From positions 1 through 40,664 of the forward strand of contig JAOZTP010000002.1 in the NCBI GenBank assembly GCA_029939135.1: a stretch of 40,664 nt of DNA, given 5' to 3'. Of the stretch, positions 6,072-23,293 are shown one piece after another (position 1 is the first letter of the stretch; each line of letters begins with the position of its first letter). The notes below the pieces were generated by a model that saw nothing but the letters and a program-made list of their open reading frames with translations, was not told the DNA's origin and did no database searches. A program made the translations under genes and the position numbers. This DNA is from Desulfobacterales bacterium (lineage in GTDB: Bacteria; Desulfobacterota; Desulfobacteria; Desulfobacterales; JAFDMD01).

Positions 6072-8525
6072 ATGGACGGAATAAAAAGCAGACCAGCCGT
6101 TATTGTTTTTGTTGGAATTATATTCGGCATTCTTGTAGGAGAAAAACTTTGCGGTTATAAAAATTTCGTCTTAATCTGCCTATCCTTTATTGTAATCCTT
6201 GCCTGTTTTAAAAACCGCCTTATAAAATTTTTGCACAATTCTAAAACTGAGCAAAACAAAAAATTATTCAACCCTCTTATATTATTCAGTCTATCCTTAA
6301 TATCTGGCTACCTTCTTATTCAGCCTTTTGTCTCCCCTATTCTACCGAAAAATCATGTTTATCATTACGCCGATTTAAAACAGAAGCAGACTATTATAGG
6401 GGTAGTATCTTCGGAACCGTTATGCAAAAAAGAGAAATGCAAATTTGAGGTTTCTGTAAATTCTATTAAAAAAAATAATAAAAAGATTCCAATCTCCGGC
6501 AAAATAATCGTTAGTTGGATAACCGAAAAAGGTAAAAAAATATATCAAGGAGATTTAATAGAATTTAACGCAAAAATCAGGTCTATAAGAAATTTTCATA
6601 ATCCCGGCGGATTTGATTACGAAAGATACATGGCTTTTAAAAAGATTTATGCAAGCTCCTTTGTATATAAAGAGAAGCTTAAAATTATTAAAAAAGCCGA
6701 AGAATCAAAATATTTAATAAGCGGATTAAGAAAAAACTTTTGCAACTTAATAGAAAAGCTGCCGTATAAAGAGGAAAAACAGGTATTAAAAGCCCTTTTA
6801 ACCGGAAAAAAGGATGAGATACCCAAAGATATAAGAAAGGCTTTTAACAATTCCGGCGCAAGTCATATATTAGCGATATCCGGTCTGCATATAGGAATAG
6901 CCGTTTTTATATCCTTTTTTATTTTTACAAAGATATTTTCATTATTTAAAAGTTTTACGGAAAAAGGAACCGTTAAAAAAATCGCCGCTTTTTTTACCGT
7001 AATAATAGCGGTTATATACGGCTTTTTTGCGGGAATGTCCCCCTCCACGCAACGAGCCGTTATTATGACTACGGTATTTTTATACTCTTTTATATTTGAA
7101 GAGGAGCCTGATACTTTAAACAGCCTTGCTTTATCCGGCATAATTATTTTAATAATAGAGCCGGCGTCTCTTTTTTCCATCTCTTTTATACTCTCTTTTA
7201 CCGCAGTTTTTGCAATATCTTACGGACTTAAAAAAGTAGGCGTAAAAGATAAAAATAGAATCCTTATATTTTTTCTCATATCGGTTTTTGCAACAATAGG
7301 AACCCTTCCTATTATACTATACAATTTTAATACACTTTGCGTAATAGGACCTTTTACAAATTTTATAGTAATTCCCGTTATAGGTTTCATATCGGTTCCT
7401 ATAGGGCTATCTGCGGTATTTATATATCCTTTAAGCGTAAAATTATCATTTTTTCTTTTAACAATATCGGCGGTTGTTTTATCCGGCGCAATAGAGTTTA
7501 TAAAAACAGTTTCTTTAATACCTTATGTATCGGTTAAAACAATCACTCCTAACATAATTGAAATATTATCTTTTTATGCGCTTGCAATTTCTTTGTTTAA
7601 CATAAAAAAATCAAATTTTGCCAAAAACACGGCTTTATTTGCGGCGCTTATTTTATGCGCGGATAGCGCATATTGGATAAAGGAAAGATTTTTAAGCCAA
7701 GAGTTAAGAATTACCGTTATAGACGTAGGACAAGGAAACTCCGCTCTTATAGAATTTCCCAGAGGGGAATGTATGTTAATAGACGGCGGCGGCTTTTCGG
7801 ACAAATCCGACTTTGACGCGGGCGAATCTATAGTAGCTCCGTTTTTACGGAAAAAAAAAATAAGAACCGTTAAAACAATAGCGCTAACCCATCCAGATTC
7901 GGATCATATAAACGGATTGAGTTATATAGCGGAAAACTTTTTTGTAAAAAATTTATGGAGTAATAACGAAGCGAAAAATACAAAAGGTTATAAATCTTTG
8001 ATAAACGCCGTCCGAAATAATAATATTAAAAATATAGATTTTCAAAAACTTTATGGCAGTCATGCCATAAACGGCGTTAAATTGGATATACTTTATCCGG
8101 TTAGAAATTTTGCCGAACTTAAAAAAAAGCAGTTATGGCGAGATACAAACAATAATTCATTGGTTTTAAAGGTAAAATACAAAGATTTTTCCTTTCTTTT
8201 TACCGGAGATATTAGAAAAAAAGCGGAAAAAGAGCTTGTAAAAACAGCCGGATCAAAACTTAAAACCCAAGTAATGCTTGCGCCTCATCATGGCAGCAAA
8301 ACATCTTCGTCTAATATTTTATTAAATGCGGCTTCGCCCGCGCTTGTCGTAATATCTTCAGGTTTTAATAACAGATACGGTTTCCCTCATACTCAGGTTA
8401 TTAATAATTATAAAAAAATAGGATGTAAAATTTTAAGAACCGATATTAACGGAGCCGTAGAGATAAAAAGCTTTGGCAAAGCCTTTAGATATAATGCGTC
8501 AAACAACTCAAACCGTCTCTTTTAA
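6072..8525 (+). CDS. comEC: DNA internalization-related competence protein ComEC/Rec2 (polytopic membrane domain plus C-terminal metallo-beta-lactamase domain)
   Basis: 817 aa. It has an N-terminal OB/DUF4131-like part, a competence-domain motif (SGASHILAISGLHIG), many TM helices, and MBL motifs (VIDVGQGNSALIE, LTHPDSDHINGL, LAPHHGS). The start lies 6 nt after the murA stop. Confidence 0.9.
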   Translation: MDGIKSRPAVIVFVGIIFGILVGEKLCGYKNFVLICLSFIVILACFKNRLIKFLHNSKTEQNKKLFNPLILFSLSLISGYLLIQPFVSPILPKNHVYHYADLKQKQTIIGVVSSEPLCKKEKCKFEVSVNSIKKNNKKIPISGKIIVSWITEKGKKIYQGDLIEFNAKIRSIRNFHNPGGFDYERYMAFKKIYASSFVYKEKLKIIKKAEESKYLISGLRKNFCNLIEKLPYKEEKQVLKALLTGKKDEIPKDIRKAFNNSGASHILAISGLHIGIAVFISFFIFTKIFSLFKSFTEKGTVKKIAAFFTVIIAVIYGFFAGMSPSTQRAVIMTTVFLYSFIFEEEPDTLNSLALSGIIILIIEPASLFSISFILSFTAVFAISYGLKKVGVKDKNRILIFFLISVFATIGTLPIILYNFNTLCVIGPFTNFIVIPVIGFISVPIGLSAVFIYPLSVKLSFFLLTISAVVLSGAIEFIKTVSLIPYVSVKTITPNIIEILSFYALAISLFNIKKSNFAKNTALFAALILCADSAYWIKERFLSQELRITVIDVGQGNSALIEFPRGECMLIDGGGFSDKSDFDAGESIVAPFLRKKKIRTVKTIALTHPDSDHINGLSYIAENFFVKNLWSNNEAKNTKGYKSLINAVRNNNIKNIDFQKLYGSHAINGVKLDILYPVRNFAELKKKQLWRDTNNNSLVLKVKYKDFSFLFTGDIRKKAEKELVKTAGSKLKTQVMLAPHHGSKTSSSNILLNAASPALVVISSGFNNRYGFPHTQVINNYKKIGCKILRTDINGAVEIKSFGKAFRYNASNNSNRLF

Positions 8526-8701
8526 AAAGCCGCTTTTCTTTGTAATGCCGTCAAATCATTTTCGGATATTCTTATGTTGATTTTTCTGTTTTTTTTCATA
8601 GTATTTTTGGCTATGGTTTTAAAATCGGTTTTTGAAACGCTGGGTTTAAGCTTTCCGTTTTCATATGCCTGTAAAATTTCGTTTTCGTAATCGTTTAACA
8701 T
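8522..8701 (-). pseudogene. BrnA/CopG-like antitoxin, C-terminally truncated (59 codons, below the ORF-track cutoff)
   Basis: My translation is MLNDYENEILQAYENGKLKPSVSKTDFKTIAKNTMKKNRKINIRISENDLTALQRKAAF*. The KINIRISExDLxAL segment is the start of the BrnA ribbon-helix-helix, and the rest of the RHH is missing. The stop overlaps the convergent comEC stop inside TTTAAA. Confidence 0.45.
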
Positions 8702-8877
8702 AGTTGAAAATCTCCAAAATATTTCTTTGTAGCTTTTCTACTAGGGATAATAGTTTTTAAAAAATATCCGTCCTCCTCTTCTACATAAGGAACCAAATAA
8801 GCATAACCTTTTACGTTGACAATCATTATTTTTTGATTTGGGTATTTTTCTTTATTAGGATGGTCAGTTTCAATTAT
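8695..8877 (-). pseudogene. BrnT-like (DUF497) toxin remnant lacking its N-terminal half
   Basis: The open frame NIIETDHPNKEKYPNQKIMIVNVKGYAYLVPYVEEEDGYFLKTIIPSRKATKKYFGDFQLC* has a C-terminal ..IIPSRKATKKY resembling the BrnT RIISARKAT..E..Y motif. An upstream in-frame TAA leaves only a 43-codon ATG ORF. An ATGTTAA overlap couples it to the antitoxin. Confidence 0.4.
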
Positions 8878-8887
8878 ATTTTAACTA

Positions 8888-9220
8888 TTACTTTTTTGTA
8901 AGATGCCATCCATCATTACATGGGCATCTGTAAACTCTAAGCCGCGCTCCTTGTTCCTTTTTTAATATTGCCGCTCTTTTTTCCGCATCCTTTTTTGTTT
9001 TATAGAGGTTTTTTCCGCAGATTCCGCATATTATACTGGGAGTTTGCCTGTTTTTAGGAGATAGGTGCCATAATCCGCAGGTATGGCATCTATACGGGAT
9101 AAAATTTGCGCCGTAATCAATGTTAGCGTAATCCGCTCCCTGCTGCGCTTCATATTCGGAATTGTATTCCGTAAGCGGTTCGCCTGTTCTGCCAGAGCAT
9201 GTGGCGCTTTTGAAACTCAT
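8888..9220 (-). CDS. Small protein with two tandem Cys-ribbon ..Y(R)C..C..WHL modules
   Basis: 110 aa with RBS GGAGA 9 nt upstream. Two internal repeats are present: CSGRTGEPLTEYNSEYEAQQGADY...YRCHTCGLWHLSPK and CGICGKNLYKTKKDAEKRAAIL...YRCPCNDGWHLTKK. Confidence 0.55.
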   Translation of the reverse strand: MSFKSATCSGRTGEPLTEYNSEYEAQQGADYANIDYGANFIPYRCHTCGLWHLSPKNRQTPSIICGICGKNLYKTKKDAEKRAAILKKEQGARLRVYRCPCNDGWHLTKK

Positions 9221-9328
9221 TCTTTTTTTTCTCCGATTTATTCAATTTTTGATATTACAAGCAAACAGCCCCGCTTTTTTACTCTAAAGGCTCATTATAT
9301 TTTACGTTCCGTTGCAAAAGGCTTGCTA

Positions 9329-10393
9329 TCAATCCCGATTCCAATTTAAACTACCATCACACATAATACACCCATAAATCCATGAGTTTTCCAAGTCATG
9401 TCCAGCTATCAGTTCATTGCAGTATCCGCAATGTTCAGGTTCGTCAAGCAATTCTAAACAATTAAGACATAAATAGGAATTATCAAATGGTATAGCAGAA
9501 GGAGCGGCTGAATATTCACAGTTGCCACAATAAGCTTCTAAAGGTTCTTCTTTATAATATCTACCGGGGGACAATTCTTGAAGAAGAAAATCAACATCTG
9601 AAACAAACCCACACTTTTGACACTCGCCGCATCCTAAATCTTCAACTTTAATATTTGTTTTACATTCAGGACAAGCGATAACTAAAAAATTACTGCGCAT
9701 ATTACATATAAGGCATGTGCAAGAAAATAATGGATTATAAGTATCATCCACCTTCGCGGCATCAAAACTGCAAAAATAGCAGGTTTCATATTGAATGCCA
9801 TTCTTTTTATCCTTGCAAATAGCAGATTTCATTTCTTCGTATTTTGCGCGTAAATATTTTTTATGGCGCTGCATTAAATGGTTAAGTTTTTCAATTTCCT
9901 CTGAGTAATCTTTAAAAATCGCTTTCCATTGATTGATAAGTAGCAAATGAAGATAAAACCACGCCGCATACTGTTCCGGTATAACTTCTTTGAGAGTCAG
10001 ATTGTCTGGTTTAACTATATATTTTTCATGGAAAAAATGAATAAGTTTGTTTCTATGATTTCTAACACTTTCAAAATATTGTTCCGCTTTATTTTCAATC
10101 TTTTCCCCAGAAATATTGTTTAATCTCTTGATGGTTTCCTTCATACTGGCTGAATGGAAATCGCCTGCTTGAAATTTTGAAAGATTTGCATTCTCAGGTT
10201 TTGCAACTATTAAAGACCAATGTTCAACCAGGAGACGAGCTTTAAAAAATAGTTCTATGGCAGAACAAAAATGAATGACTGAATACTTTGGCGATTTATC
10301 TAACTCATCAACAGATTTTTTTAAAAAGTCTATAGCGTTACGAGTTAGGCTATCAAAAAAAATTTGTAGATTTATCGACTTTTTTTTATTCAT
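9329..10393 (-). CDS. HEPN-like (Rx4H) N-terminal domain fused to a C-terminal array of at least 4 zinc ribbons
   Basis: The track starts at TTG 10399; ATG 10393 with GGGAA upstream is the likelier start. The N-terminal helical domain carries VRNHRNKLIHFFH (R116-x4-H121 in track numbering). The C-terminal 170 aa contain 8 or more CxxC pairs (CYFC, CLIC, CPEC, CGEC..C, CGNC, CLNC, CGYC, CIMC). Confidence 0.6.
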   Translation of the reverse strand: MNKKKSINLQIFFDSLTRNAIDFLKKSVDELDKSPKYSVIHFCSAIELFFKARLLVEHWSLIVAKPENANLSKFQAGDFHSASMKETIKRLNNISGEKIENKAEQYFESVRNHRNKLIHFFHEKYIVKPDNLTLKEVIPEQYAAWFYLHLLLINQWKAIFKDYSEEIEKLNHLMQRHKKYLRAKYEEMKSAICKDKKNGIQYETCYFCSFDAAKVDDTYNPLFSCTCLICNMRSNFLVIACPECKTNIKVEDLGCGECQKCGFVSDVDFLLQELSPGRYYKEEPLEAYCGNCEYSAAPSAIPFDNSYLCLNCLELLDEPEHCGYCNELIAGHDLENSWIYGCIMCDGSLNWNRD

Positions 10394-10508
10394 TCGCAAT
10401 TTCCCGTTAACAAGTTATTGTGCATGTCTGTATATCTTGAATAATATTAATAATTTTATTGTCAAACAGATAGCCGTTTATGTTGGGTTTTGAGAAGCGA
10501 CGCCCAAA

Positions 10509-11348
10509 CTACTTTTTCTTTTTACTTTTTCGGATAATCTTCCTTTTGGCTTCGGTTATAGGAGGCGGAATATCAGCGCCGATTATTTTTTCTATGGCGT
10601 CAAAGCGTTTCGGGCATGCCTTAATGCAGGTTCCGCATTTTATACATTTTCCCTGGTCTATTATATGAATTATATTTTTTGCTCCGTCTATTGCGTCTAC
10701 AGGGCATTGTTTAACGCAGATTCCGCATGCTTTGCATTTATTCGGGGTAATATAATATGAGGGGGCATCTGCAAATAATCGTTCTATTTCCTCCGCGGTA
10801 AAAAAATCTTCATATTGAGAGGGGTCTTTAAGAATGGTTTCAAGTTTTTCCTTTTTCGCTATTTTAATATAAGGGATAAGTTTTGAAATTTCTTTAAGTT
10901 TATCTTCAATTATATTCGGGTCTTTTTTTTCGGCTTTGCCGATCGGTCCTATTTCTTTTATTTTGTTTGTAAAATTATTAACAATTTCTGCAAACAGATT
11001 TCCTTCGCCGGAAGACATAAAGTCTATTTTTAATCTTTCCGGGTTTAACCCTATATATTCCATTATTTTTTTCAATAAAAGGGTTATATTTAGAGCATGA
11101 TAATTGCCATGCGTGGTATAATTGCATTCGTTAAGACGGCATCCTCCTATAAAGACTCCGTCTATTTTGTTTAAGAAGGCTTTTATTATAAATTCCGGAT
11201 CGATTCTTCCGGAACACATTACGCGGATAAGTCTTATTTCCGTATTATATTGTAATCTGGAAACTCCAGCGAGGTCGGCGGCGCCGTAGGCTCACCAATG
11301 GCAAACAAAACCTAATATTCTCGGTTTGAATTTATGTTTGGAGCTCAT
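10509..11348 (-). CDS. bamF: MvhD-like domain fused to a 2x[4Fe-4S] ferredoxin, selenocysteine-containing (BamF-type subunit of class II benzoyl-CoA reductase)
   Basis: The track ORF (10509-11219) starts mid-domain. The frame continues upstream through TGA (11292-11294) to ATG 11348, giving [51 protein letters not shown]. In the canonical MvhD motif (CNWCSYxGADLAG) the U position is Cys. The C-terminus has CKACGICVKQCP and CIKCGTCIKACP. Confidence 0.8.
11257..11269 (-). promoter_or_regulatory. Candidate bacterial SECIS apical hairpin for the bamF UGA
   Basis: On the mRNA, CUGGA-GUU-UCCAG (5-bp stem, G-first loop) starts 22 nt after the UGA. This geometry is compatible with bacterial SECIS models. 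Found by eye only. Confidence 0.35.
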
Positions 11349-11395
11349 TATCTTTATATCTCCTTTAGTTAAATTTCATTGTATAGCTTCATAAT

Positions 11396-11445
11396 TTGCC
11401 CGTTTGCGGCGGTTAAAATTTTTTTCGCCTTGCAAACGAACAAAT
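11396..11445 (-). repeat. Family B palindromic element, short (centre-deleted) copy, between bamE and bamF
   Basis: TTTGCCCGTTTGCGGCGGTTAAAATTTTTTTCGCCTTGCAAACGAACAAA contains both conserved arms (GCAAAC..GGCAAA and TTTGCAAGGCGAA) but lacks the central GGAATACATGTAGTATTTCGAGG core. Confidence 0.5.
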
Positions 11446-11687
11446 CACTTTGCTATCCAACAAAATTTTATCATTATTTTTTATAATTAAGGATTTGCTA
11501 TATCTCCAAGATATTCAAAGTTTTTTGCGTAAACGCAAACTGTTTGAAAGTTGCGCAAAGCGCAGTTGAAAATCCCAAGAGGCAAGCAAAAGCGAAGCAA
11601 ACAAACTTGAACGTCTCTGTTTTTTGCAATTAAATAATATTTGCTTATAATTTAAAAAAATCTCTTTTATTATTTCCCCGTTTTTGA

Positions 11688-14600
11688 TTATGCCGCCGCT
11701 TCTATTTGGCTTATGATTTCTTTATCCGTAAAATGTTTTAAACTTATTGCGCCGGTAGGACACTTTGCGTTGCAAAGTCCGTCTCCTTTGCAAAGAATAG
11801 GGTTAACAAAAGCCTTTCCGCCTCGTTTTGTTTTGCGTAATTCTATGGCGTTGTATGAGCATATGGATATGCAGGCTTCGCACCCTATACATTTTTTTTC
11901 ATCTACTTCGCAAACGGAACCGGAAACCGTAACCATATCGCGAGAAAGCAGGGTTAAAACTCTGCCTGCGGCTCCGTAAGCCTGACTGATTGTTTCGGAT
12001 ATATGTTTCGGGTAATGAGCTGTTCCGCAAAGATAAACTCCGTCTGTTCCGAATTCTACGGGTCTTAATTTTACGTGAGCCTCTTTGAAAAAACTATCTG
12101 GTCCTAAAGGAACTTTAAATAATTGAGATATTTTTTTATTATCTTCCGGCGGAATAACCGCCGCCGCCAAACCGATTATATCCGCGTTTATGGCAATTTT
12201 TCTGTCTAATATATAATCATGTGCGGCTACTCTTAATCCTTTGTCTATGGCTTTTACCTCCGGAGCGGCTTCCGGTTTGTAGCGGATAAATTTTATATCC
12301 TTATCCGCGGCTTGCCTGTAATAGTCTTCCTTAAAACCGTAAGTTCTTATATCTCTAAATAAAATGTATATGTCGGCGCTTGGGTTTATCTCTTTTAGTT
12401 TAAGTCCGTTTTTAATAGATTCGGAGCAGCATATTCTACTACAGTAGTTTCTATCCTCGTTTCTACAGCCTACGCATTGAATTATTACGATATTTTTTGC
12501 GTTGATTACGGTTTTATCCCGTTTATCTATTAAATCTTCCAATTGAAGATTTGTTACTACCCTTTCATCTTTCCCGTAAAGATATTCTTTCGGTTTATAT
12601 TCCTGCGCGCCTATAGCAATTACCGTCGCCCCATGTTCTATTTTTTCGGTTTGGTTTTTATATTCTATTTTGGTTTCAAAATTTCCCACATAACCGTAAG
12701 CTTCGGTTATGTCAGCCTCTATTCTTACGCGGATTAAAGGATGTTTATAAATTTCGCTTATAAGATTATCCATATGATTTCTAATATCCAAATCTTCCAA
12801 TAAGTAACAGATATTTTTTGCAACGCCTCCAAGCTCTTTATTTTTTTCTATAAGATATACGGGATGATTTTGCTTGGCTATGGAAAGAGCGCATGTCATT
12901 CCGGCTACTCCGCCGCCTATTACTAATGCGGTTTTATTTACCGGAAGGTCTATTTCCTTTAAAGGCTCAAGATGCGCCGCCCGCGCCGCAGACATTTTAA
13001 TTATATCTTTTGCTTTTTGGGTCGCATCCTCCTTTTCTTTGGAATGCACCCAAGAGTTATGCTCTCTTATATTAGCCATTTCGCAAAAGTATTGATTGAT
13101 TCCGGCTTCTCTTAAGGTATCTCTAAATAACGGCTCAAGGGTTCTTGGCGAGCATGCCGCTATAACTACGCGGTTTAACCCTTTCACTTTTATTGCTTCG
13201 GTTATCTCTTTTGCGGAATTTGTAGCGCATGAAAAAAGCTGCTCGCAGGCATAAACAACGTTAGGAAGGGTTAAAGAGTATTCAACGGTAGAAGGAATAT
13301 CTACGATTCTTCCTATGTTTGCTCCGCAATGGCATACAAAAACGCCTATTTTCGGCTCCTTTTCGGCTTGATCGATTTCAGGCGGATAGATTCTTTCTTC
13401 GGTAAGTTTATCTCTTCTGTAATTAAGAAGTTCGCCGCATTGGGAGCCTGCGCCGCCCGCGCTAAAAACCGATTCCGGAATATCGGAGGGACCGCAAAAT
13501 GCGCCGCTTATAAATATTCCCTCTCTTGTCGTCTGCATTGGATTGGATGAGTCCGTTTTGCAAAATCCGTAAGAGTTAAGCTTTATTTGAAATTTTTCGG
13601 CTATTTTACGATGATCCGCCGGCGGATTTAATCCTACAGACAACACCGCCATATCAAATTCTTCCTCTTTTACTCCGTCTTTAGGATCGACGTATCTTAT
13701 TATTATATTTTTATTTTGAGGATTTTCTTTTACTACTGAAGCGTAGCTTCTGATAAATTTAACTCCGGGAAAATTCTCGGTTCTTTGGTAATATGTTTCA
13801 AAATCTTTACCGTAAGCGCGAATGTCGTTATGAAATATTACACATTCTGCGTTTTGATTATGTTCTTTTGTTAAAATTACCTGTTTTTGAGTGTAAGCGC
13901 AGCATACCGCAGAGCAATACGGATTATCTCCGGCGGTTACTCTTCTTGAGCCTACGCATTGAAGCCAGGCTATTTTACTCGGATGTTTTTTATCGGAGGC
14001 TCGCAGTATTTCCCCTTCATAGGGTCCTGTTGCGCATAAAATTCTTTCAAAATCAAGAGATGTAACCACATTTTGAAACTCTCCGTAGCCATACCCGCCT
14101 TTTATTGCGGGATCAAACGCTTCATATCCGGGAGATAAAATAACGGCGCCTATTTTTATTTCTGCTTTCTCCTCTTTTTGATTAAGGTCTATAGCGTTAT
14201 TTTTACAAACTCCTTCGCAGATAAGGCATTTTTTCTCTTTAAGATAAAGGCAGCTTTCATCTATGTATGCGATTAAAGGAATTGCTTGAGAAAAATATAT
14301 ATGAACCGCTTTATTTTCCGATATATCCTGATTGAATTTATCCGGGTATTGAACGGGACAGTATTCTACGCAGGTAGCGCAACCAGTGCATTTTTCCTCT
14401 ATTATATATCTCGGTTTTTTTATTAAGGTTGCTTTAAAATTCCCCGCTTCTCCTTCTATGTTTTCAACTTCCGCAAATGTTATAACCTCTATGTTAGGAT
14501 GCCGGCCGACCTCGACCAGTTTAGGAGCGAGTATTCACATGGAGCAGTCGTTGGTAGGATAGGTTTTATCCAATTGAGCCATTTTACCGCCTACAGCGGG

Positions 14601-14762
14601 ACCTTTTTCAATAAGATAAACCTTAAAGCCAGCGCCCGCAAGATCCAACGAGGCTTGTATGCCGCTAATTCCTCCGCCTACTACCATTACGTCCGCATAA
14701 TTCTTTTTTTCGGTTTTACAAAGTTTTTGAATTTTTTCTTTTATTAGTCGATTCTTATTCAT
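11688..14762 (-). CDS. bamE: Long HdrA-like FAD/FeS protein, selenocysteine-containing (BamE-type subunit)
   Basis: Track ORFs 14535-14762 and 11688-14069 are in the same frame. I translated the 465 nt between them and found no stop. The only interruption is TGA 14535-14537, inside ..[20 protein letters not shown], where canonical HdrA has CSMC. Other features are a GGGISG FAD motif, a second VIGGGVAGM domain, and several CxxCxxCxxxCP clusters. Total length is 1024 codons. Confidence 0.85.
14504..14517 (-). promoter_or_regulatory. Candidate SECIS apical hairpin for the bamE UGA
   Basis: On the mRNA, GGUCG-AGGU-CGGCC (5-bp stem including one G-U pair, 4-nt loop with G at position 2) begins 17 nt after the UGA. 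Found by eye only. Confidence 0.3.
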
Positions 14763-14865
14763 TATTTTTTTCCGTTTAAATATTTCTATTCATGGAGTTT
14801 TTATCTATTTTTTTTCTCTCTTCCATCTCCGGTTTTGAGTTTTTAATTGAGTTATTTTAAGGTTT

Positions 14866-16017
14866 TTAAAGCGCCTCTGCAATTACCTCGCTAATCTCTT
14901 TAATCTCTATCTGTTCGCTTCCCTTAACGGTTAATTTGCTGTCTTCAAAATTGGCTACGCAGTATGGGCATGCCGTAACCAATACTTCGGCGCCGGCATC
15001 TATTGCCTGTTGTAATCTAATGTCCGAAAATCTTTCTCCTTTGGATGTCTCCATCCAAATTCTGCCGCCTCCGCCTCCGCAGCAAAGGCTATTTTCCTTT
15101 GTTTCTTCCATTTCAAGCAGTTTAAGTTCCGGTATCTGTTTTAATATTTCTCTCGGCTCATTATATATGCCGTTATGACGTCCGAGATAACAGGGATCAT
15201 GGTATGCGACCTTTTTATTATATTCTTTGTTAATTTTCAGTTTCTTATTTTTGAAAAGTTCCAATAAATATTCGGTAATATGTATAACTTCAAAGGTTGT
15301 CATAAATTCCGGGTATTCGTTTTTAAGGGTATGATAACAATGTGGAGAGGATACGAGAATTTTTTTTACGCCGTTGTCTATAAATGTTTTTATATTCTCT
15401 TTTGCCAATTTTTCAAATAGCTGTTCGCCGCCGGTTTTACGGATGCTTTCCCCGCAGCAGTTCTCCTTTTCGCCCAGTATTCCGAAATTTGCTTCAGCTT
15501 TTTTAAGAATTTTTGCCGTAGCCGCCGCCGCTTTTTTTAATCTCGGATCGTAGCTGTAATAACAACCCGTAAAATATAATAGTTCTGTTTCCTCATCAAA
15601 TTTTTTTATCGAAAGCTCCTTTGCCCAGTCTCCCCTTTTTTTTCTATCTTCGTTAAACGGATTGCCTTCTCCGGTAAGGCTTCCGCTTATTCCGCGAATT
15701 GGAGCGGCAGAAGCGGGTAATATATCATATTCTGCGGCAATCTTTCGCAGCGCTAGTCCGGATTCTATTTGTTGAACATCTCGGGGGCAATGAGTCGGGC
15801 ATTTTCCGCAAGTTGTGCATAGCCATAAATCTTCGCTTTCTATGTCGGTAAAGCCGAATGCCGCCTCCCGAACTATTTTGCGCATGCTAAAAGGGCGGAC
15901 TTTATTCCACGGGCATACTATATCGCATAATCCACATTGAAAGCATTTTTTAAAGGCTTCGCCTCCGCTTGCTTTTATCATATCTGATATTTCTTTATAA
16001 TCGGATAAATTTTCCAC
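14866..16017 (-). CDS. bamD: HdrD-like FeS protein with two CCG domains (BamD-type subunit)
   Basis: GTG start preceded by GAGGA. It has CFQCGLCDIVCP and CTTCGKCPTHCP ferredoxin motifs plus CCG motifs (NCCGES, LCCGGGGG). Confidence 0.8.
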   Translation of the reverse strand: MENLSDYKEISDMIKASGGEAFKKCFQCGLCDIVCPWNKVRPFSMRKIVREAAFGFTDIESEDLWLCTTCGKCPTHCPRDVQQIESGLALRKIAAEYDILPASAAPIRGISGSLTGEGNPFNEDRKKRGDWAKELSIKKFDEETELLYFTGCYYSYDPRLKKAAAATAKILKKAEANFGILGEKENCCGESIRKTGGEQLFEKLAKENIKTFIDNGVKKILVSSPHCYHTLKNEYPEFMTTFEVIHITEYLLELFKNKKLKINKEYNKKVAYHDPCYLGRHNGIYNEPREILKQIPELKLLEMEETKENSLCCGGGGGRIWMETSKGERFSDIRLQQAIDAGAEVLVTACPYCVANFEDSKLTVKGSEQIEIKEISEVIAEAL

Positions 16018-16113
16018 TTTTTTCCTCTATTTAAATTTCGCTTGAAATATTATATATATTCCTACGGTTAAAATAGAATATTAAACGTTTCATCTGTTTG
16101 CAATTTCAATTAA

Positions 16114-16150
16114 GGGATTTCTCCTCGCTACGCTTGTCGAAATGACAAAC
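16114..16150. repeat. Family A half-site (GGGATTTCTCCTCGC..GTCGAAATGACAA)
   Basis: GGGATTTCTCCTCGCTACGCTTGTCGAAATGACAAAC, in the bamC-bamD gap next to the family B copy. Confidence 0.65.
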
Positions 16151-16209
16151 AAAAACATAGCCATACGGGTTTTCCCTCATTTATATTCGTATTCGGTCAA
16201 AATTTATCT

Positions 16210-16329
16210 GCATAACGAAGCAGTTTGTTTGCAAGGCGAACATTTTTTTTAACCGGAGGAATACATGTAGTATTTCGAGGATTAAAAAAAATGTTCAACG
16301 CCGCAAACGGGCAAACTGCTTCGTTATGC
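16210..16329 (+). repeat. Family B long imperfect palindrome (full copy) between bamC and bamD
   Basis: The outer arms GCATAACGAAGCAG (16210-16223) and CTGCTTCGTTATGC (16316-16329) form a perfect 14-bp inverted repeat. The core is TTTGCAAGGCGAA..AACCGGAGGAATACATGTAGTATTTCGAGGATT..TTCAACGCCGCAAACGGGCAAAC. The bamC stop codon (16324-16326) lies inside the right arm. Confidence 0.75.
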
Positions 16330-16866
16330 CGCGGACTTTACGGAGATTTGAGCTATAGAATCTATTACTTGCTCTAATCCGTATTTATCTGCCAAAGCTT
16401 TTAATCCTGTTTCCAATTCGTCGGACATAAGCGTATTTTCAATTTTTTCCTCCGCCTCTTCATAAATCAAAGCGTCCGTTATGCACCATTTAACGCATAA
16501 AGGCTCATCTTCTCCTTCGCACATGTCGCATTTTAAAGGAAGTCCGGAATCAGGCTCTTTAAATTCCTCTCTTGAAGGGCATGATGCTCGGCAAAAGGCG
16601 CATTCCTCATACTCTTTTCCATCTATTATATATTTGTCTCTGCCGGCGCATTCCGCCGGAGTATATTCCCCCGCATAAACAGGAATGTATATGTCCGCCA
16701 ATGGCTCACGGATTACCCGAATACGCGCCCTTGCCGGATTATTGGAACTATATTTCGGCAAAGCGTGAAAAGCGGAGCATATCATTTCGCAAGCTTTGCA
16801 GCCGTTGCATTTATCAGCGTCTATTTTTATTCTTTTTATTATTTTTTTCTCTTTTTCAACCTTCAA
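16324..16866 (-). CDS. bamC: 4Fe-4S cluster protein (BamC-type electron-transfer subunit)
   Basis: TTG start 3 nt after the bamB stop, with GGGAGG 8 nt upstream. 180 aa, Cys-rich: CNGCKACEMICS, CAFCRASCP, CDMCEG..PLCVKWC. Confidence 0.8.
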   Translation of the reverse strand: MKVEKEKKIIKRIKIDADKCNGCKACEMICSAFHALPKYSSNNPARARIRVIREPLADIYIPVYAGEYTPAECAGRDKYIIDGKEYEECAFCRASCPSREEFKEPDSGLPLKCDMCEGEDEPLCVKWCITDALIYEEAEEKIENTLMSDELETGLKALADKYGLEQVIDSIAQISVKSAA

Positions 16867-16869
16867 GGT

Positions 16870-18867
16870 TTATACCTCCCTTTTATTCGGTTCGGTTTTT
16901 TGACCTTTTTTATTCGGCAAAATCTCTCTTTTTATGAAATCTTCGCTAACATAATTTAAACCGAGTTGGTTTAAGCTTTCTTCGGTAGGGATTCCGTCTT
17001 GATTCCATCCTTTAAGTTTGTAATATTCGTCTAAAAGCTTTTCTTCCAATTCCGGAAATCTTTTTTTCCAATGGTTTTTCGGCGGCTTGTCGTCTTTTCT
17101 TCTCATTCCTCTTCTTATATTGATAGCTCTTATAAGGGTTCTGTATCTTTTTGCGGCGGCGGTTAATTTTTCTTCGTCCATATCAATTCCGACTCCCGCA
17201 GATATAAATTTTGGATAATTATGTATATGATAAGGAGGTTTTAACGGAAATGAGGATAAGCCAGCGCACATTCCCAAAGCGTCGTCTATGTAATGCATTT
17301 TTTCCTGCCAATCCACTATGTCGCAGGTCATTTCAACGGTCGGATAAAAGGGTATCGAATTTTCTCCGCGAAGTTCCCAATCTAAAAAGTATTGTTTGAA
17401 TTTTTCGTCCGGAACATGGAACCAGTCCTTTACAAACGCTTCTCTTTGTTCTCTTTTCGGAAATGGCGCTTGCGGAAACTGCCCTTCTATTTGGGTGATA
17501 TTAATTTTTTCGCCGGTAGCATACATAAGAAAGTATATAGGATTTAACATGGATAATTTAAGCGGCAGTTGCTCATGTTTTTTGATGTTGTTATGAGCGT
17601 ATTCTTCGGCTCCATCGCCAATTTTTTTTGACGCCCAATATGTTCCGTCCGCCAGTATATCCCCTATTCCTTCTCTTTTTACTATTTTATCGAGAAGCCA
17701 ATAGAATCTTCCTTCGTTATCTTTCGGCATGCCCGGAAAATCTTTATCCTTTAATATGCCGTTTTCGTAAAGTTCCAATGCAAACGCCATAACCTGCGGA
17801 GCGGAAAAACTGTCAACGCCATGTTCCGTAGCTATTTGAGCGATTTTTAATCCAAAATCAAGATCGGACATTGCCGCCATTGTATAGGTAAGTTTGGAAA
17901 AGCATTTCATCATGTATGTAGGCATTCCCGGAAGGGTGAGAGTCGCGCCGCATTTCATCGGGCAGTTGTAACAGCTTATAAGCCTTGTTTGCGCGTCATT
18001 CATTGTTTTTGTCCATGCTTTTGCTGTATCTTCGGTCCAAAAGCCTTTTCGACGAACGCGCGAATTTCCCCACATAAAGTTTTCGGTATGCCATTTTTCA
18101 TCATGTATTTTCATCTCTTGAGGCGAGCCGAGCCCCGCCAAAATCGGCATTACTCCGGGTATAGGATTTTCTTCTCGAAATTTTATATATTCCATAACTT
18201 CGTTGCAAAGTTCCATGAATTCTTCCGGTTTTGCAACATTTACATCTTTTGTTCCGCGAACGACTACCGCTTTTACGCCTTTATCTCCCATAACCGCGCC
18301 GAGTCCGCCTCTGCTTGCGCTTGATCTGCCCTGCTCTATGGAGGCGAAAAACACTCTGTTTTCTCCAGCCGTCCCTATAGAGGCTACTTGAGCTTTAGGC
18401 TGGTTTAACTCCTTTTTGATTATCTCCGCAGTCTCTATAGCCCCTTTCCCTTTTAAATGAGAGGCGTCTTTTATTTCAACTTTGTCATTATTTATCCATA
18501 AATAAACAAGGTCTGGAGATTTTCCGCGGAGTATAACTTTGTCGTAGCCTGCATATTTTAATTCCGGCGCCAAAAACCCGCCCATCATAGAAAACGCCAT
18601 TAATTCGGTTTGCGGCGATATTGTAGAAACTATGGTTCTGTTGCAGCCTATGGCTGGGGTTCCGCATAAAAGTCCTGCGGAAAATATTAATAGATTATCG
18701 GGAGAAAACGGCTTAACTTCCGGCGGGACTCTGTCCCATAATATTTTGGCGTTAGAGCCGAGCCCTCCGAGATAAAGTTCGGTATCGGCAGGATCCGTAG
18801 CTACCCTTTCGATATTTCCTAATGTTAGATCAATTTCGAGATTAAATCCGGTTTCTGCATATCTCAT
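16870..18867 (-). CDS. bamB: Aldehyde:ferredoxin-oxidoreductase-family tungsten enzyme (BamB-type catalytic subunit of class II benzoyl-CoA reductase)
   Basis: 665 aa. The N-terminus MRYAETGFNLEIDLTLGNIERVATDP..LYLGGLGSNAKILWDRVPPEV..CNRTIVSTISPQT is very close to my recollection of Geobacter BamB. The AOR fold is supported by the EQGRSSASRGGLGAVMGDKG motif. The gene heads the bamBCDEF order. Confidence 0.88.
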   Translation of the reverse strand: MRYAETGFNLEIDLTLGNIERVATDPADTELYLGGLGSNAKILWDRVPPEVKPFSPDNLLIFSAGLLCGTPAIGCNRTIVSTISPQTELMAFSMMGGFLAPELKYAGYDKVILRGKSPDLVYLWINNDKVEIKDASHLKGKGAIETAEIIKKELNQPKAQVASIGTAGENRVFFASIEQGRSSASRGGLGAVMGDKGVKAVVVRGTKDVNVAKPEEFMELCNEVMEYIKFREENPIPGVMPILAGLGSPQEMKIHDEKWHTENFMWGNSRVRRKGFWTEDTAKAWTKTMNDAQTRLISCYNCPMKCGATLTLPGMPTYMMKCFSKLTYTMAAMSDLDFGLKIAQIATEHGVDSFSAPQVMAFALELYENGILKDKDFPGMPKDNEGRFYWLLDKIVKREGIGDILADGTYWASKKIGDGAEEYAHNNIKKHEQLPLKLSMLNPIYFLMYATGEKINITQIEGQFPQAPFPKREQREAFVKDWFHVPDEKFKQYFLDWELRGENSIPFYPTVEMTCDIVDWQEKMHYIDDALGMCAGLSSFPLKPPYHIHNYPKFISAGVGIDMDEEKLTAAAKRYRTLIRAINIRRGMRRKDDKPPKNHWKKRFPELEEKLLDEYYKLKGWNQDGIPTEESLNQLGLNYVSEDFIKREILPNKKGQKTEPNKREV

Positions 18868-18944
18868 TTTTTTCCCCTTTATTAGTAGATTGGGTTGAGC
18901 TTTGCTTCACCCAACTTGCTTATTTTTTCCCTTTTATTAATAGA
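18868..18944 (-). repeat. bamB leader: duplicated ~22-nt RBS-containing segment flanking a hairpin
   Basis: 18868-18889 (TTTTTTCCCCTTTATTAGTAGA) and 18921-18944 (TATTTTTTCCCTTTTATTAATAGA) are direct repeats. They bracket the hairpin TTGGGTTGAGCTTTGCTTCACCCAA (18890-18914). Confidence 0.5.
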
Positions 18945-19027
18945 AGGTTATATAAAAAGTAACTACTTTATAGCTATGTTGTATTTACGTGTCAAGAATA
19001 AATAATTCCCGTTAAAGAACCGCTTTT

Positions 19028-19117
19028 TTTGCCTGTTTGTAGCGTTGGGCAAAATTTTTAATCCTTGAAGCGCTTAAGATTAAAAGTTTTCACCGCCTTG
19101 GAAGCAGAACAAACAGG
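19028..19117 (-). repeat. Family B element, degenerate copy upstream of bamB
   Basis: TTTGCCTGTTTGTAGCGTTGGGCAAAATTTTTAATCCTTGAAG...CACCGCCTTGGAAGCAGAACAAACAGG. The outer inverted repeat is CCTGTTTGT / ACAAACAGG. Confidence 0.4.
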
Positions 19118-19387
19118 TTATGTAAATACGCGAAATGAATTCTCCCCGCAAACATAATCATTGAATTGTTCATATTTTTTTTGACTTATAATAATATTAA
19201 TGTATATATTAACTATTTTTGTCCAATTTGTATCAATTTCTATCTGAATGGAGTTTCTTTTAACAGGCTTGTCTGGCGCTCATACTGCATTGATAATTTA
19301 AAATTAAAACGGCATTTTATACATGCTTTGCCGTTAAAAAACTATGTTAACATATTAATAAAATTTTTATAAAAAGAGAAATTAAGT

Positions 19388-21903
19388 ATGAAGATAAAAG
19401 GAATTTATTATTTTATCTTATTTATACTTATCGGAGCTGGCATTGCGGGAGCGAATGATTACTCAAACCCGATAACCCCAAGCCCAGTAACTACCCCGAT
19501 AACAATGACCAACGGAAGCGATAACTACACAAACACCATAATCGGCACAATTAATATTACTAGCGCACCCGGTATCGGTATAGATGCAAGCGCAAGCGCT
19601 GATACCGGCGACGATACTATTATAAACGCAGGAAATATTACAGTTTCAAGCGTAGGCGCAGGCATAGATTTTCACGAAGGCAACAACGCGCTTTATAATC
19701 AAGCTGTCGCCCGTATTAGTGTTACCTCTACCGCTTGCTGAACCGGGCATAATTTTTGGATCGGGCAACGATAACTTCACAAACTCAGGGTATGCTTCAG
19801 TTGCAAGCACAAGTGGTATCGGTATCGAAATGGGCGCTGGAGATGATAATATTACCAATTCCGGAACTTTGGATTCCAATAATACTATTGACGTCGGCGC
19901 TGGCAATGATAGTTTTATAAATGATGGAACTGTTACGGTTAACAGCGGCGCCCAACAGGGCATAAAATTAGGAGAAGGATACAACACATTTGAGAATAAA
20001 ACTTCCGGCATAATTAATATTAACTCTACTAATGATGGCATAACTTTTGGCGCGGACGACGATAGTTTTACAAATGATGGAAGTATTACAATTACGACAA
20101 CCGGAACAAACGCTATAGCAATGGGAGAAGGATACGATAACTTCACTACTTCCGGCGCGCTGAATTTTGATAAGCCTATTGACGGGGGAGCCGATACTGA
20201 CATTTTCACATTAAACGGAACTGCAATTCGATCCTTTGATCAGGACATTGTAAATTTTGAAACCATTAATAAAGAGGAATCCGGCTCTTGGGATTTAACC
20301 GGCGCAATAACCGGCGCAACGGCTATTAATATTAATAATGGCGAATTGCATCTTAACGGAACAATTACCGCGCCGATTAGCCTTGCAAGCGCGGGAGCTT
20401 TGGGAATTACAAGCCCCAATTCCATAGGGACTCTTAATTATGCCGGCAACTTTACTCAAAGTGCAGGGGGATTATTAATAGACGTAGATAACGAGAGCGC
20501 AGATTTATTCGCAATTACCGGAAATGCAAATATAACCAGCGGAACACTGATTGTTAATCCGCTGGCAAGCTATCTTGATTATGACTGGACGCAAAAAATA
20601 TTAGACGCCACAGGAATTCGCACAGGCGAGTTTGCTTCTATTCTTTCCACAAGCGCGCTATTTGAATTTGAAGGGGATTACACGGTAGCAAATGAAGTAT
20701 GGCTTAACAAAATTAACGTGCCATTGCTTACCGCTATGGAAAACGCCTCTACTCCGATAACCGCAAATAATATCTCTCAAGGAAACTATATTCAACAAGC
20801 TATAGAGGCGGGAGAAAGAAATTCTGTTAATTAACGCTTTAATCTCTTTATCTACCGCCGAAGACGTAATCAAAGCGATAGATACTCTTTCGCCGGAGAC
20901 TGTAGCCTCCGCCATTGGCGCAAGCCAACAGAATGTTTCAGCTCAAAATTTAAACGTATCTTCAAGATTGGGAATTCATCATAGATGGATAGGATACGGA
21001 ATGCCAAAATTGATCGCAGGTCTTGCATCCGACGCTTTCCCAATACTTTACGCAAATTCAAATCAGGCGGATACTCCGCTTAATTCCTTGTGGGTTAAAG
21101 GCATATACCTTAATTCTAAAAACGATGCGGACGACGGCAAGTTTGGATTTGAAACCGATACTCAAGGATTTAGCGTAGGTAAAGATTATTTAAAGAGCGT
21201 TTTACTTTACGGAGTTAGCGGAGGGTTTTCTCAATCTACAATAGATTATGACGATATTTCTTCCGAAGGGGAAATCGACACTTTAAATTTAAGCTTATAC
21301 GGCAGCTACGCTCCGGAAAGCTATTATATTGACGCAATATTATCATATTCAAACCATAATTATACAATGGAAAGAAAAATTTCTATTCTTAACGAAACCG
21401 CAACCGGCGATTACAGAGCGGACGAATATAGCGCTTCTCTTAAAGCGAGATATCCTATTAAATTAAACGCTTTTACATTTACTCCTATAGCCTCAGTTCA
21501 ATATTCGCATTATAAGCAAGATTCCTTTACCGAAACAGGCTCCTCCGCAGCCCTTGTTATAGAGGCGACAGATTCCAACTCCTTTATGACCGGGCTTGGG
21601 GCGTCAATAGGAAAAAGGTTTGATTACGGGCAATGGAAACATTTGCCTCATTTAAAGTTTATCTGGAAGCATGAATTATGCGATACCGCAGATAAGATTA
21701 AAGCAAGCTTTGCGGATTTAGGCGAATCTTACGGAACATTTGAAATAGAAGGCTACGATGCCGGCGCCGAAACCTATAATATAGGACTCGGACTGACCTC
21801 GTATAAAGGAAAAAAATTCTCCTTATTTTTGAATTACGATATAGACATAAAAGAGAACTATATTGCGAATTCGGTTACCGGAGGCTTAAAGTTTTACTTC
21901 TAA
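19388..21903 (+). pseudogene. Autotransporter (signal peptide, G-x-D-x-F/I-x-N-x-G repeat passenger, C-terminal beta-barrel) interrupted by two frameshifts
   Basis: The three track ORFs (19388-19741, 19719-20834, 20968-21903) lie in three different frames and read as one protein. The signal peptide is MKIKGIYYFILFILIGAGIAGA. Passenger repeats run across the first junction (GDDTIINAGNITV, GNDNFTNSG, GDDNITNSG, GNDSFINDG). The third frame is open back to ~20821 (ILLINALISLSTAEDVIKAIDTLSPE..), which is the typical linker before the barrel that ends ..GGLKFYF. Confidence 0.75.
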
Positions 21904-22050
21904 AAAAAGGCGTTGCATAATTTTGTAATTTGCTCAATTTCGGCTTTGAAAAAAGTTTTTAATCCTCGAAATACTACATGTATTCCTGCGGTTAAAAACT
22001 TTTTTCGCCTTGAACTTGAACAAACCACTTTGTTATATGCAACGCCTTTT
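21902..22050 (-). repeat. Family B element (full copy) starting at the autotransporter stop codon
   Basis: The outer arms are AAAAAAAGGCGTTGCATAA and TTATATGCAACGCCTTTT. The core is the reverse complement of the 16210 copy (AATCCTCGAAATACTACATGTATTCCTGCGGTT, TTCGCCTTGAA). Confidence 0.75.
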
Positions 22051-22272
22051 AATTATTCTTTTTCCAATTAAAAAAACATGCGTATTATGTGAGTTGTGTT
22101 GAGCGAAGCAAGACCCAACATTATTAAAAATCTTTTCCAAAGTCAAAATCATACAAAATCCAAAGCCTTTATTGTTGGAAGCAGGAAAGGAAAAAAGGAA
22201 GATAGAAGAAGAGTTCCCGTCGGTTATAATTAAGGGATAAAGCGGCATATTTTTTTTTATTGCAATTAATTA

Positions 22273-22352
22273 AGAGATTTCTCCTCGCCGCGCTCGTCGA
22301 AATGACAAGCAAAAATAAAAAGCCTGTCTTGTCGAGCAAAGCGAGAAATCCT
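22273..22352. repeat. Family A complete unit (two inverted half-sites)
   Basis: AGAGATTTCTCCTCGCCGCGCTCGTCGAAATGACAAGC-aaaaataaaaa-GCCTGTCTTGTCGAGCAAAGCGAGAAATCC. Confidence 0.7.
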
Positions 22353-22416
22353 TTTATTGTTTTTATAATTATTCTTTTTTCCGTTTTAATATTTTTAATA
22401 ACAAGCGTTCATTATG

Positions 22417-23229
22417 TTAAACATTTTTATATATAACCCGCTCTTTTCCCGCCGGAATAATAAATCCTGATTGTTTATCCATGTTTATAATGGTTATATT
22501 AAGTTTTAAGGCTATTTCAACCGCTATTGAAGTAGGGTTTGATAAGCTTATTAATATAGGAATTTTTGCTCTTGCGACTTTTTGTATTATTTCAAAACTA
22601 ATTCTGGATGATAATACCGCAAGCCGCATATCCGCCATTCTATTTTTAAGGAGCAAAAAGCCTATTGCTTTGTCCATTGCATTATGACGCCCCACATCCT
22701 CTCCTTGCGAGATTATATCAAGGTTTGAATTGAAAAACATAACCGCATGGGTTCCTCTTGTTTTGGCGTAATACTTTTGACGATTTAAAAACTTTTCAAG
22801 ACTTATGTTTATTTGTCGCGGAGTTACATTAAATTTATGGTCTGCAATATTAATATTTTTTATAAGATTATCTATCCTGTTTTTTGAAGATATTTCTCCG
22901 CCGGATTGATTAACAAGCCTTTTTTGTTCTAAACCTTTAAGTATGCTTTTTTTATTCTTATCCGTAAGTTTAACGGTGATCCGGTTTTTATCGGAATAAT
23001 CGATAGAGGCAATATTTTTATGCGATTTAATTATTCCTTCGGAAAGACATAAGCCTGCGGCAAGTTCAATTTCGTTTCCGCAAGTTCTCATAAGCGTTGA
23101 ATAGGGCGTATCCTCTATTGTTATAAGAAGCGGCTCTTCTAATACAAAGTCTTGCTTATCTTTGGTTATGCCGTTGTTTTTATAACGGATAATATTGTAT
23201 CTTTTATATGTTTTGTTGTCTGAGGTCAT
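22417..23229 (-). CDS. fdhD: Formate dehydrogenase accessory sulfurtransferase FdhD
   Basis: 270 aa with the FdhD/NarQ motifs GEDVGRHNAMDKAIGF and SSRISFEIIQKVARAKIPIL. Confidence 0.85.
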   Translation of the reverse strand: MTSDNKTYKRYNIIRYKNNGITKDKQDFVLEEPLLITIEDTPYSTLMRTCGNEIELAAGLCLSEGIIKSHKNIASIDYSDKNRITVKLTDKNKKSILKGLEQKRLVNQSGGEISSKNRIDNLIKNINIADHKFNVTPRQINISLEKFLNRQKYYAKTRGTHAVMFFNSNLDIISQGEDVGRHNAMDKAIGFLLLKNRMADMRLAVLSSRISFEIIQKVARAKIPILISLSNPTSIAVEIALKLNITIINMDKQSGFIIPAGKERVIYKNV

Positions 23230-23293
23230 TTTATTTTTTTTGTTTGTTTTGCTCGTAATTTGTTTTGCTTTTTAAGCCTATACAATAAAATTA

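Follow-up and report, generated by a model that had tools for sequence, protein, structure and literature searches.

The stretch of DNA analysed here (the window) comprises 40,664 nucleotides from the draft genome of a Desulfobacterales bacterium (GenBank assembly GCA_029939135.1, contig JAOZTP010000002.1, contig C112 of the draft), and all coordinates given below are those of the whole stretch. At positions 10509-18867, its minus strand carries a predicted bam operon for the class II benzoyl-CoA reductase, which is the key enzyme of aromatic degradation in strict anaerobes. The complex of Geobacter metallireducens has the composition Bam[(BC)2DEFGHI]2, and the same Bam complex has reportedly been isolated from Desulfosarcina cetonica as well. 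The structures of Geobacter BamBC (crystal, PDB 4Z3W) and of the holo-complex (cryo-electron microscopy, cryo-EM) are available, and electron input has been resolved only for this eight-subunit complex, in a 2026 preprint (10.64898/2026.04.10.717634).

The operon starts with bamB (16870-18867; 665 amino acids), which harbors the Pfam domains AFOR_N and AFOR_C and encodes the catalytic tungsten-bis-metallopterin subunit. It is followed by bamC (16324-16866; 180 amino acids, Fer4), the product of which matches Geobacter BamC, a [4Fe-4S] electron-transfer subunit; by bamD (14866-16017; 383 amino acids), the HdrD-like product of which contains two CCG domains and a Fer4 dicluster and is assigned as the exit of the high-potential electron; by bamE (11688-14762; 1024 amino acids), which encodes a fused double HdrA-like flavoprotein with selenocysteine at residue 76 (Sec76) and a C-terminal 2x[4Fe-4S] domain; and by bamF (10509-11348; 279 amino acids), which encodes an MvhD-like adaptor with Sec19, an FlpD/MvhD domain and two Fer4 domains. 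Two of the gaps inside the operon are unusually long (306 bp between bamC and bamD at 16018-16323, and 339 bp between bamE and bamF at 11349-11687), and a scan of positions 8500-23500 for promoters and terminators gave counts equal to those of shuffled sequence. The preliminary description of this DNA had recognized the bamBCDEF order on the minus strand together with the sizes and domain content of the genes, all of which agree with the coordinates and with the Pfam and NCBIfam matches. Judged by these matches, the five-gene operon is intact and is a genuine class II (tungsten-dependent, ATP-independent) benzoyl-CoA reductase operon.

Residues 1-650 of BamB align gaplessly to Geobacter metallireducens BamB (PDB 4Z3W_A; 1268 bits and ~83% identity by phmmer), which substantiates the resemblance of the N-termini that had been pointed out earlier, and BamC matches its Geobacter counterpart (PDB 4Z3W_E) with 270 bits (E = 7e-80). 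Every active-site residue named for BamB is present at the same numbering. Cys322, which lies in the motif MMKCF, is the protein ligand to tungsten and is absent from the rest of the AOR/WOR proteins save YdhV (PMC12096430). Glu251, His255, Glu257 and His260, all kept in the segment E251-MKI-H255-D-E257-KW-H260, correspond to the invariant zinc site and proton conduit by which BamB is distinguished from the remaining tungsten oxidoreductases (PMC12096430). Clustering with conventional aldehyde oxidoreductases, which had been named beforehand as an outcome that would speak against the assignment, did not occur, because BamB scores 1268 bits against Geobacter BamB, whereas its best match among true aldehyde oxidoreductases (1AOR) reaches 228 bits. 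An identity as a conventional aldehyde:ferredoxin oxidoreductase is excluded by this difference, by Cys322 and by the score of 231 bits against the NCBIfam AOR model, which lies below the cut-off of 868. The genome contains a single BamB ortholog, and its other AOR-family genes are 29-33% identical.

BamD, in which the Pfam CCG domain is matched in two stretches (131 bits) and is accompanied by Fer4_8, is 59-70% identical to its counterparts in 80 related loci. BamE matches the NCBIfam HdrA2 model over three stretches (937 bits) and the HdrA of PDB 8RVU with 647 bits; it carries Rossmann/FAD motifs at residues 24-62 and 612-650 and Fer4_7 at residues 957-1005, and aligns over residues 1-1024 with the BamE of related loci at 62-73% identity. 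Position 280 of BamE is Asn by raw numbering and is unaligned to Lys280 of Geobacter BamE, so that it has no bearing either way. Each of the bamE and bamF reading frames contains one in-frame TGA, at 14537-14535 (Sec76) and 11294-11292 (Sec19), respectively. Consequently, automatic calling of open reading frames (ORFs) yields fragments of 75 and 793 amino acids for BamE and only the last 236 amino acids of BamF, as the preliminary description had noticed when it reported that both selenoprotein genes are broken. The TGA codons are read as selenocysteine because of the alignments and because the genome encodes the decoding machinery, namely a tRNA-Sec gene and SelB (369 bits, cut-off 242), and not because of hairpins downstream of the codons.

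The C-terminal domain of BamF and the search for BamGHI

The N-terminal part of BamF is of the MvhD type. Pfam FlpD covers residues 11-134 (155 bits), and this domain matches the MvhD of PDB 5ODC_D both by sequence (143 bits) and by fold (template-modelling (TM) score of 0.88). In an AlphaFold2 model of BamF with a mean pLDDT (predicted local distance difference test) of 81.7, the N-terminal domain superposes on MvhD with TM scores of 0.86-0.92. Sec19 occupies the position given for Geobacter BamF (10.64898/2026.04.10.717634). The MvhD fold, together with the construction of BamE from two HdrA-like units, is shared with the HdrA/MvhD complexes of methanogens (PDB 5ODC, 7BKB, 8RVU). The Bam enzyme differs from these complexes in that it acts on an aromatic ring and an electron-transferring flavoprotein (ETF) instead of heterodisulfide and ferredoxin, and in that BamF possesses ~140 extra residues, including a ferredoxin domain.

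This ferredoxin domain distinguishes the BamF of the window from that of Geobacter, which carries a winged helix-turn-helix (wHTH) contacting BamI, according to the cryo-EM study of the Boll and Schuller groups (10.64898/2026.04.10.717634). The BamF of a Geobacteraceae locus is 255 amino acids in length and ends in a helix-turn-helix-like segment. At the corresponding end of the BamF studied here (10509-10760, ~residues 197-279) lies a 2x[4Fe-4S] domain with two CxxCxxCxxxCP motifs, all 8 Cys of which are invariant in 30 homologs. The domain is ~60% identical over ~75 amino acids to the extreme C-terminus of BamH, when a Geobacteraceae metagenome-assembled genome (MAG; locus L091) and not the sequences of G. 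metallireducens is taken as the reference, and the match extends into the proline-rich tail past the second cluster motif. In Geobacter, the C-terminal domain of BamH, with its H1 and H2 [4Fe-4S] clusters, is assigned as the acceptor of external reduced ferredoxin (10.64898/2026.04.10.717634). Comparison of 21 BamF ferredoxin domains with 30 BamH C-termini gave a mean identity of 64% over 75 amino acids (117 bits), versus 41-44% over ~45 amino acids (42-46 bits) for the other NuoF-like C-termini of this genome and a mean of 33% for the C-terminal ferredoxin domain of BamE. The C-terminus of BamF, as far as sequence can tell, is therefore the counterpart of the ferredoxin-accepting domain of BamH, which has replaced the BamI-docking wHTH, and is not a generic ferredoxin. 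Among PDB entries, the C-terminal region matches the C-terminal domains of HydB-type subunits and also MvhB polyferredoxin, RnfB and FwdF. The HydB/NuoF-type subunits of bifurcating hydrogenases and of Nfn-ABC/Stn (PDB 8A6T, 7Q4V, 9BOV, 8OH5) possess the same kind of C-terminal ferredoxin-interacting domain; unlike in those subunits, the domain in BamF is free of an FMN/NAD-binding core and is joined to an MvhD-type adaptor. The suggestion in the preliminary description that the enzyme has a different electron-input partner is thus backed by the altered BamF, but the BamH-type domain on BamF itself had been overlooked.

The protein database contains thousands of BamF relatives, and the top 120 all combine FlpD with Fer4. 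Where a name is given, it is that of a hydrogenase iron-sulfur or delta subunit, and in most cases the protein is cut at the Sec codon; this BamF, too, is named "hydrogenase iron-sulfur subunit" and cut in this way in public databases. Some relatives have Cys in place of Sec. Five such proteins (P0043, P0047, P0050, P0054 and P0067), which carry the ferredoxin domain and Cys at position 19 (CNWCCYGG), are Cys variants of the same form and stand at full length in the databases.

The second peculiarity of the operon is that it ends at bamF. No NuoE-, NuoF- or NuoG-like gene lies 3′ of bamF, and the remaining 10.5 kb of the contig is occupied by unrelated genes, beginning with an ORF of 356 amino acids, an ORF of 110 amino acids and then comEC on the opposite strand. 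Nor were orthologs of BamG, BamH or BamI found in the 2.05-Mb genome (a draft of 204 contigs, 97.6% complete), when the Pfam-checked proteins of L091 (BamG and BamH) and of L047 and L072 (BamI) were used as references. For comparison, the true orthologs of ~30 other loci show identities of 52-77% (BamG), 57-78% (BamH) and 61-91% (BamI) to these references. What the genome does encode is a NuoE/NuoF pair on contig C13, which is 41% and 52% identical to the BamG and BamH references and the NuoF of which has the same domain order as BamH, and a partial set comprising a NuoE fragment with which contig C173 begins (37%), a NuoF C-terminus with which contig C86 begins (56%) and a BamI-like protein on C86 (44%). 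The locus annotation and the genome-wide ortholog search hence confirm that bamGHI is missing after bamF, as had been stated earlier. Of the features of the canonical eight-subunit enzyme, neither a BamGHI set (best matches 37-56%) nor a wHTH on BamF was found.

In other respects the enzyme resembles that of Geobacter. Orthology and gene order are shared for BamB (~83%), BamC, BamD, BamE and the MvhD part of BamF; Cys322, the Glu251/His255/Glu257/His260 set, Sec at position 19 of BamF and one Sec in BamE are shared as well; and the BamD exit and genes for ETF likewise occur. The differences lie in the lack of BamG, BamH and BamI and in the C-terminus of BamF, which is a BamH-type 2x[4Fe-4S] domain and not a wHTH. 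Because BamGHI is missing and the C-terminus of BamF is swapped, the predicted complex is devoid of both an FMN/NADH site and a HydBC-type confurcation step.

Distribution and proposed exchange of the operon types

For comparison, 80 loci with BamB relatives at 81-86% identity were fetched, and 52 of them could be typed by BamF. In this analysis, a BamF with a BamH-type 2x[4Fe-4S] C-terminus is called ferredoxin type (Fd-type), and an Fd-type operon without bamGHI is called the short form. Downstream of bamF, bamG and bamH are absent from all 20 Fd-type loci (2.6-4.3 kb available), and they follow bamF directly in 31 of the 32 wHTH-type loci; in L050, which departs from this pattern, the cluster is rearranged and bamC and bamD are not adjacent either. 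The locus in the window combines both features of the short form, Fd-type BamF and the absence of bamGHI. All-against-all clustering of the flanks revealed no gene family specific to Fd-type loci. Four of five other Fd-type genomes, one of the four being a complete chromosome, contain no BamH homolog above 56% identity, and the fifth has a BamH ortholog (72%) elsewhere in the genome. Among 301 genomes of the same order, 51 were counted with a full-length Fd-type BamF that has an in-frame TGA, and 48 with matches that end at ~residue 194, for which the wHTH type is deduced solely from this end point; four genomes have both (hand count).

Similar clusters have been annotated in cultured sulfate reducers. 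Strain NaphS2 possesses a bamB-F cluster (NPH_7171-7176) apart from its BamG-I homologs that is induced on benzoate (PMC2988823), and the annotation of BzS1, which degrades benzene, lists "BamB-F" (PMC13416013). Like the operon in the window, both are five-gene clusters that end at bamF with no adjacent bamGHI, a likeness by annotation only. The papers on these strains do not mention a ferredoxin fusion of BamF, and NaphS2 is treated as having BamG-I elsewhere. Desulfatiglandales locus L045, which belongs to the order of NaphS2, is of the Fd-type. In the open literature, no description of the BamF-ferredoxin fusion, of its tie to the absence of BamGHI or of its prevalence was found, subscription papers being beyond the search. 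The short five-subunit form with the BamH ferredoxin domain on BamF is thus widespread and apparently undescribed. The earlier view of the locus as a possible stand-alone module does not hold, because the genes of the pathway lie elsewhere in the genome, and the arrangement is a widespread operon type and not peculiar to this genome.

The two types do not follow the phylogeny of the enzyme core. In a BamE tree (51 rows), the operon types are interleaved, and at least six type changes are forced by well-supported branches; a single Fd-type clade on BamE is rejected by the approximately unbiased (AU) test (difference in log-likelihood of 847, p = 3e-7). In the tree of the BamF N-terminal domain (185 shared columns), by contrast, 20 of the 21 Fd-type rows fall into one clade with 99% support, and Fd-type monophyly is not rejected by the AU test (p = 0.115). 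As the types are interleaved on BamE and all but one of the Fd-type rows form a single clade on BamF, these trees are most simply explained by repeated recombination between BamBCDE cores, in which the input end has been exchanged; this end consists of bamF-Fd by itself or of bamF-wHTH together with bamGHI.

The one Fd-type BamF outside this clade is encoded by a locus from a Candidatus Glassbacteria MAG (L030), and its N-terminal domain groups with the Geobacter-type wHTH BamF of L072 and L091. It may reflect a further fusion that arose independently, or else a breakpoint within bamF.

Pathway context and electron input

The remaining genes for ring reduction and opening are located on other contigs. 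The bamA/oah gene is on C33 (549 bits, cut-off 464) and had is on C177 (479 bits, cut-off 339), and an enoyl-CoA hydratase gene that breaks off at the end of C33 and resumes where C177 starts, immediately before had, is likely to be dch. The preliminary description had correctly stated that the window contains no bamA, dch, had or benzoate-CoA ligase gene; the sole AMP-forming ligase of the window is of the acetyl-CoA synthetase type (35435-37483). It had also named the lack of any dienoyl-CoA pathway in the genome as evidence that would count against a benzoyl-CoA reductase, and such a lack was not observed. With both bamA and had above their cut-offs, the genomic context supports the predicted benzoyl-CoA reductase function. 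No class I reductase is apparent, because only one gene of the HGD-D family (C128:2525-3436) occurs genome-wide and the BcrABCD type needs two such subunits. No dearomatising reductase other than BamBCDEF was found in this small genome, which also contains dsrAB and is that of a sulfate reducer. The data sets listed for the operon include no RNA set and are hydrothermal vent and sediment metagenomes, and the source of the organism is probably a hydrothermal vent. The organism would then be a 2-Mb sulfate reducer, of probable vent origin, with a full benzoyl-CoA ring-reduction route.

We consider it probable, on the basis of domain homology and gene context, that the locus encodes a functional short-form reductase, BamBCDEF, which operates by a single bifurcation with ferredoxin as the only donor and the input end of which is a cassette. 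In this scheme, the electron path of which is transferred from the Geobacter structure (10.64898/2026.04.10.717634), reduced ferredoxin would give its electrons directly to the [4Fe-4S] pair of the BamF ferredoxin domain, from which they would pass via the C-terminal clusters of BamE and the [2Fe-2S]/Sec19 site of BamF to the FAD of BamE at which bifurcation takes place. From there, one electron would travel uphill via BamC to the tungsten site of BamB, where benzoyl-CoA would be reduced to 1,5-dienoyl-CoA, and the other would travel downhill via BamD and ETF, enter the menaquinone pool and feed sulfate respiration. NADH would have no role, and there would be one bifurcation instead of a confurcation followed by a bifurcation. 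Dch, Had and BamA, encoded on the other contigs, would open the ring afterwards. The genome contains two etfBA pairs, one of which (C134:7544-10102) has a paralog of BamD (37.5% identical) directly upstream of etfB/etfA. An ETF paired with an ETF:quinone oxidoreductase-like Fe-S protein would be expected to be encoded in this way, and the C134 genes are a possible exit route for the high-potential electron.

If this scheme is true, aromatic rings can be reduced without NADH/ferredoxin confurcation. Because the short form is about equally common in Desulfobacterales, the published scheme of confurcation followed by bifurcation would not be universal, and the short form would provide a smaller and more tractable complex for studying how an HdrA-type flavin reaches -620 mV. 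Ring reducers will be miscounted in surveys of metagenomes in which a pathway passes as "complete" only with bamB-I. The broader proposition, that the short form is self-sufficient and uses ferredoxin only in about half of the Desulfobacterales ring reducers, with the input cassette swapped at least six times, appears to us to have even chances.

Several observations weigh against the ferredoxin-only scheme. The mechanism rests on domain homology, and a different donor could dock on the fused domain. Of the two NuoEF-like sets in the genome, that of C173/C86, with its BamI-like protein and an HdrA-MvhD fusion, could act in trans; moreover, the genome is in 204 contigs, so that a small missing gene set is conceivable. 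No benzoate-CoA ligase exceeds the TIGR02262 cut-off in the genome, the best candidate being a generic fatty-acid-CoA ligase (225 versus 375 bits). Hairpins resembling selenocysteine insertion sequences in the 60 nt 3′ of each UGA are no better than in shuffled sequence (z = -0.5 and -0.1). Finally, the assignment of the 48 genomes of the same order to the wHTH type depends only on where the matches end.

The alternative that a NuoEF-type NADH module acts in trans in place of BamGHI is unlikely, and it is the main rival. Its candidates are the C13 pair, in which NuoF has the BamH domain order, and the C173/C86 set. The latter consists of a NuoE/NuoF-like pair split by contig ends (C86:3-3644, designated L106, and the start of C173, designated L107), which provides the NuoE-like fragment and the NuoF C-terminus, and of the BamI-like protein, which is 210 amino acids in length, carries 2Fe-2S and 2x[4Fe-4S] clusters and is 44% identical to BamI. 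There is a precedent in NaphS2, the BamG-I homologs of which were counted as parts of the enzyme despite lying apart from bamB-F (PMC2988823). However, identities of 37-56% to BamG, BamH and BamI fall short of those of true orthologs, which are mostly 61-91%, with a few divergent BamG and BamH proteins at 52-59%. In addition, the C86 genes lead into an HdrA-like/ferredoxin/MvhD fusion of their own (826 amino acids), and the set is probably a separate flavin-based bifurcating complex. BamF also lacks the wHTH on which BamI would dock, and its fused ferredoxin domain already constitutes an entry port.

It is improbable that the ferredoxin domain of BamF docks some other partner, such as a hydrogenase, a formate dehydrogenase or a 2-oxoacid:ferredoxin oxidoreductase. 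Domains of the 2x[4Fe-4S] kind are generic connectors, and MvhB polyferredoxin, RnfB and FwdF are among the PDB matches of this one; its closest relative is nevertheless the BamH C-terminus, with which it shares 64% identity and the tail and the assigned role of which is the acceptance of ferredoxin, and no partner gene is conserved beside Fd-type operons.

The preliminary description had further proposed a paralogous module acting on a different aryl-CoA. Many genomes contain several BamB paralogs of undefined substrate (PMC5109826, PMC4148979), and the absence of a benzoate-CoA ligase above the family cut-off would fit this proposal. It is very improbable all the same, because the BamB in question is ~83% identical to the crystallised Geobacter enzyme (1268 bits, as against 228 for an aldehyde oxidoreductase), retains all the named active-site residues and is the sole BamB ortholog in the genome, the next AOR-family matches being at 29-33%, and because bamA and had, which are specific to the benzoyl-CoA pathway, are present. 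Loss of bamGHI through incomplete assembly is scarcely credible, even for a draft of 204 contigs estimated at 97.6% completeness, because the contig runs 10.5 kb past bamF into unrelated genes, a genome of the same genus has the same gene order on a 129-kb contig, and the BamF swap marks the type without GHI in 20 of 20 loci.

Flanking genes

Upstream of bamB, on the same strand, lies fdhD (22417-23229; TIGR00129, 153.6 bits, cut-off 140.9), which encodes a sulfurtransferase that probably matures the tungsten cofactor of BamB. An fdhD homolog is found within 10 kb of bamB in 25 of the 80 loci, in both operon types. In the window, fdhD and bamB are separated by a spacer of ~3.5 kb (18868-22416, no strand assigned), which is not part of the enzyme. 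This spacer looks like an insertion that has split fdhD from the operon, because in two genomes of the same genus (G065 and G130) only ~0.5 kb separates bamB from fdhD, which lies directly upstream on the same strand. It contains two plus-strand ORFs without a Pfam or NCBIfam match (19388-19741 and 19719-20834) and a gene for an autotransporter beta-domain (20968-21903; Pfam Autotransporter family).

On the other side of the operon, the minus-strand ORF of 356 amino acids (9329-10399) encodes an Rx4H motif (RNKLIH), and the C-terminal half of its product is rich in Cys and resembles a zinc ribbon. Its label as a HEPN gene is a guess at the level of this motif, as the ORF has no Pfam or NCBIfam match. 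The Cys-rich ORF of 110 amino acids that comes after it (8888-9220, minus strand) likewise has no Pfam or NCBIfam match. The ORF of 356 amino acids has no match in the G130 contig examined, and both ORFs are kept in G065 (78% and 83%, respectively). Farther along the window, a minus-strand ORF of 755 amino acids (27580-29847) fuses the EutB (large-subunit) and EutC (small-subunit) domains of ethanolamine ammonia-lyase in one polypeptide.

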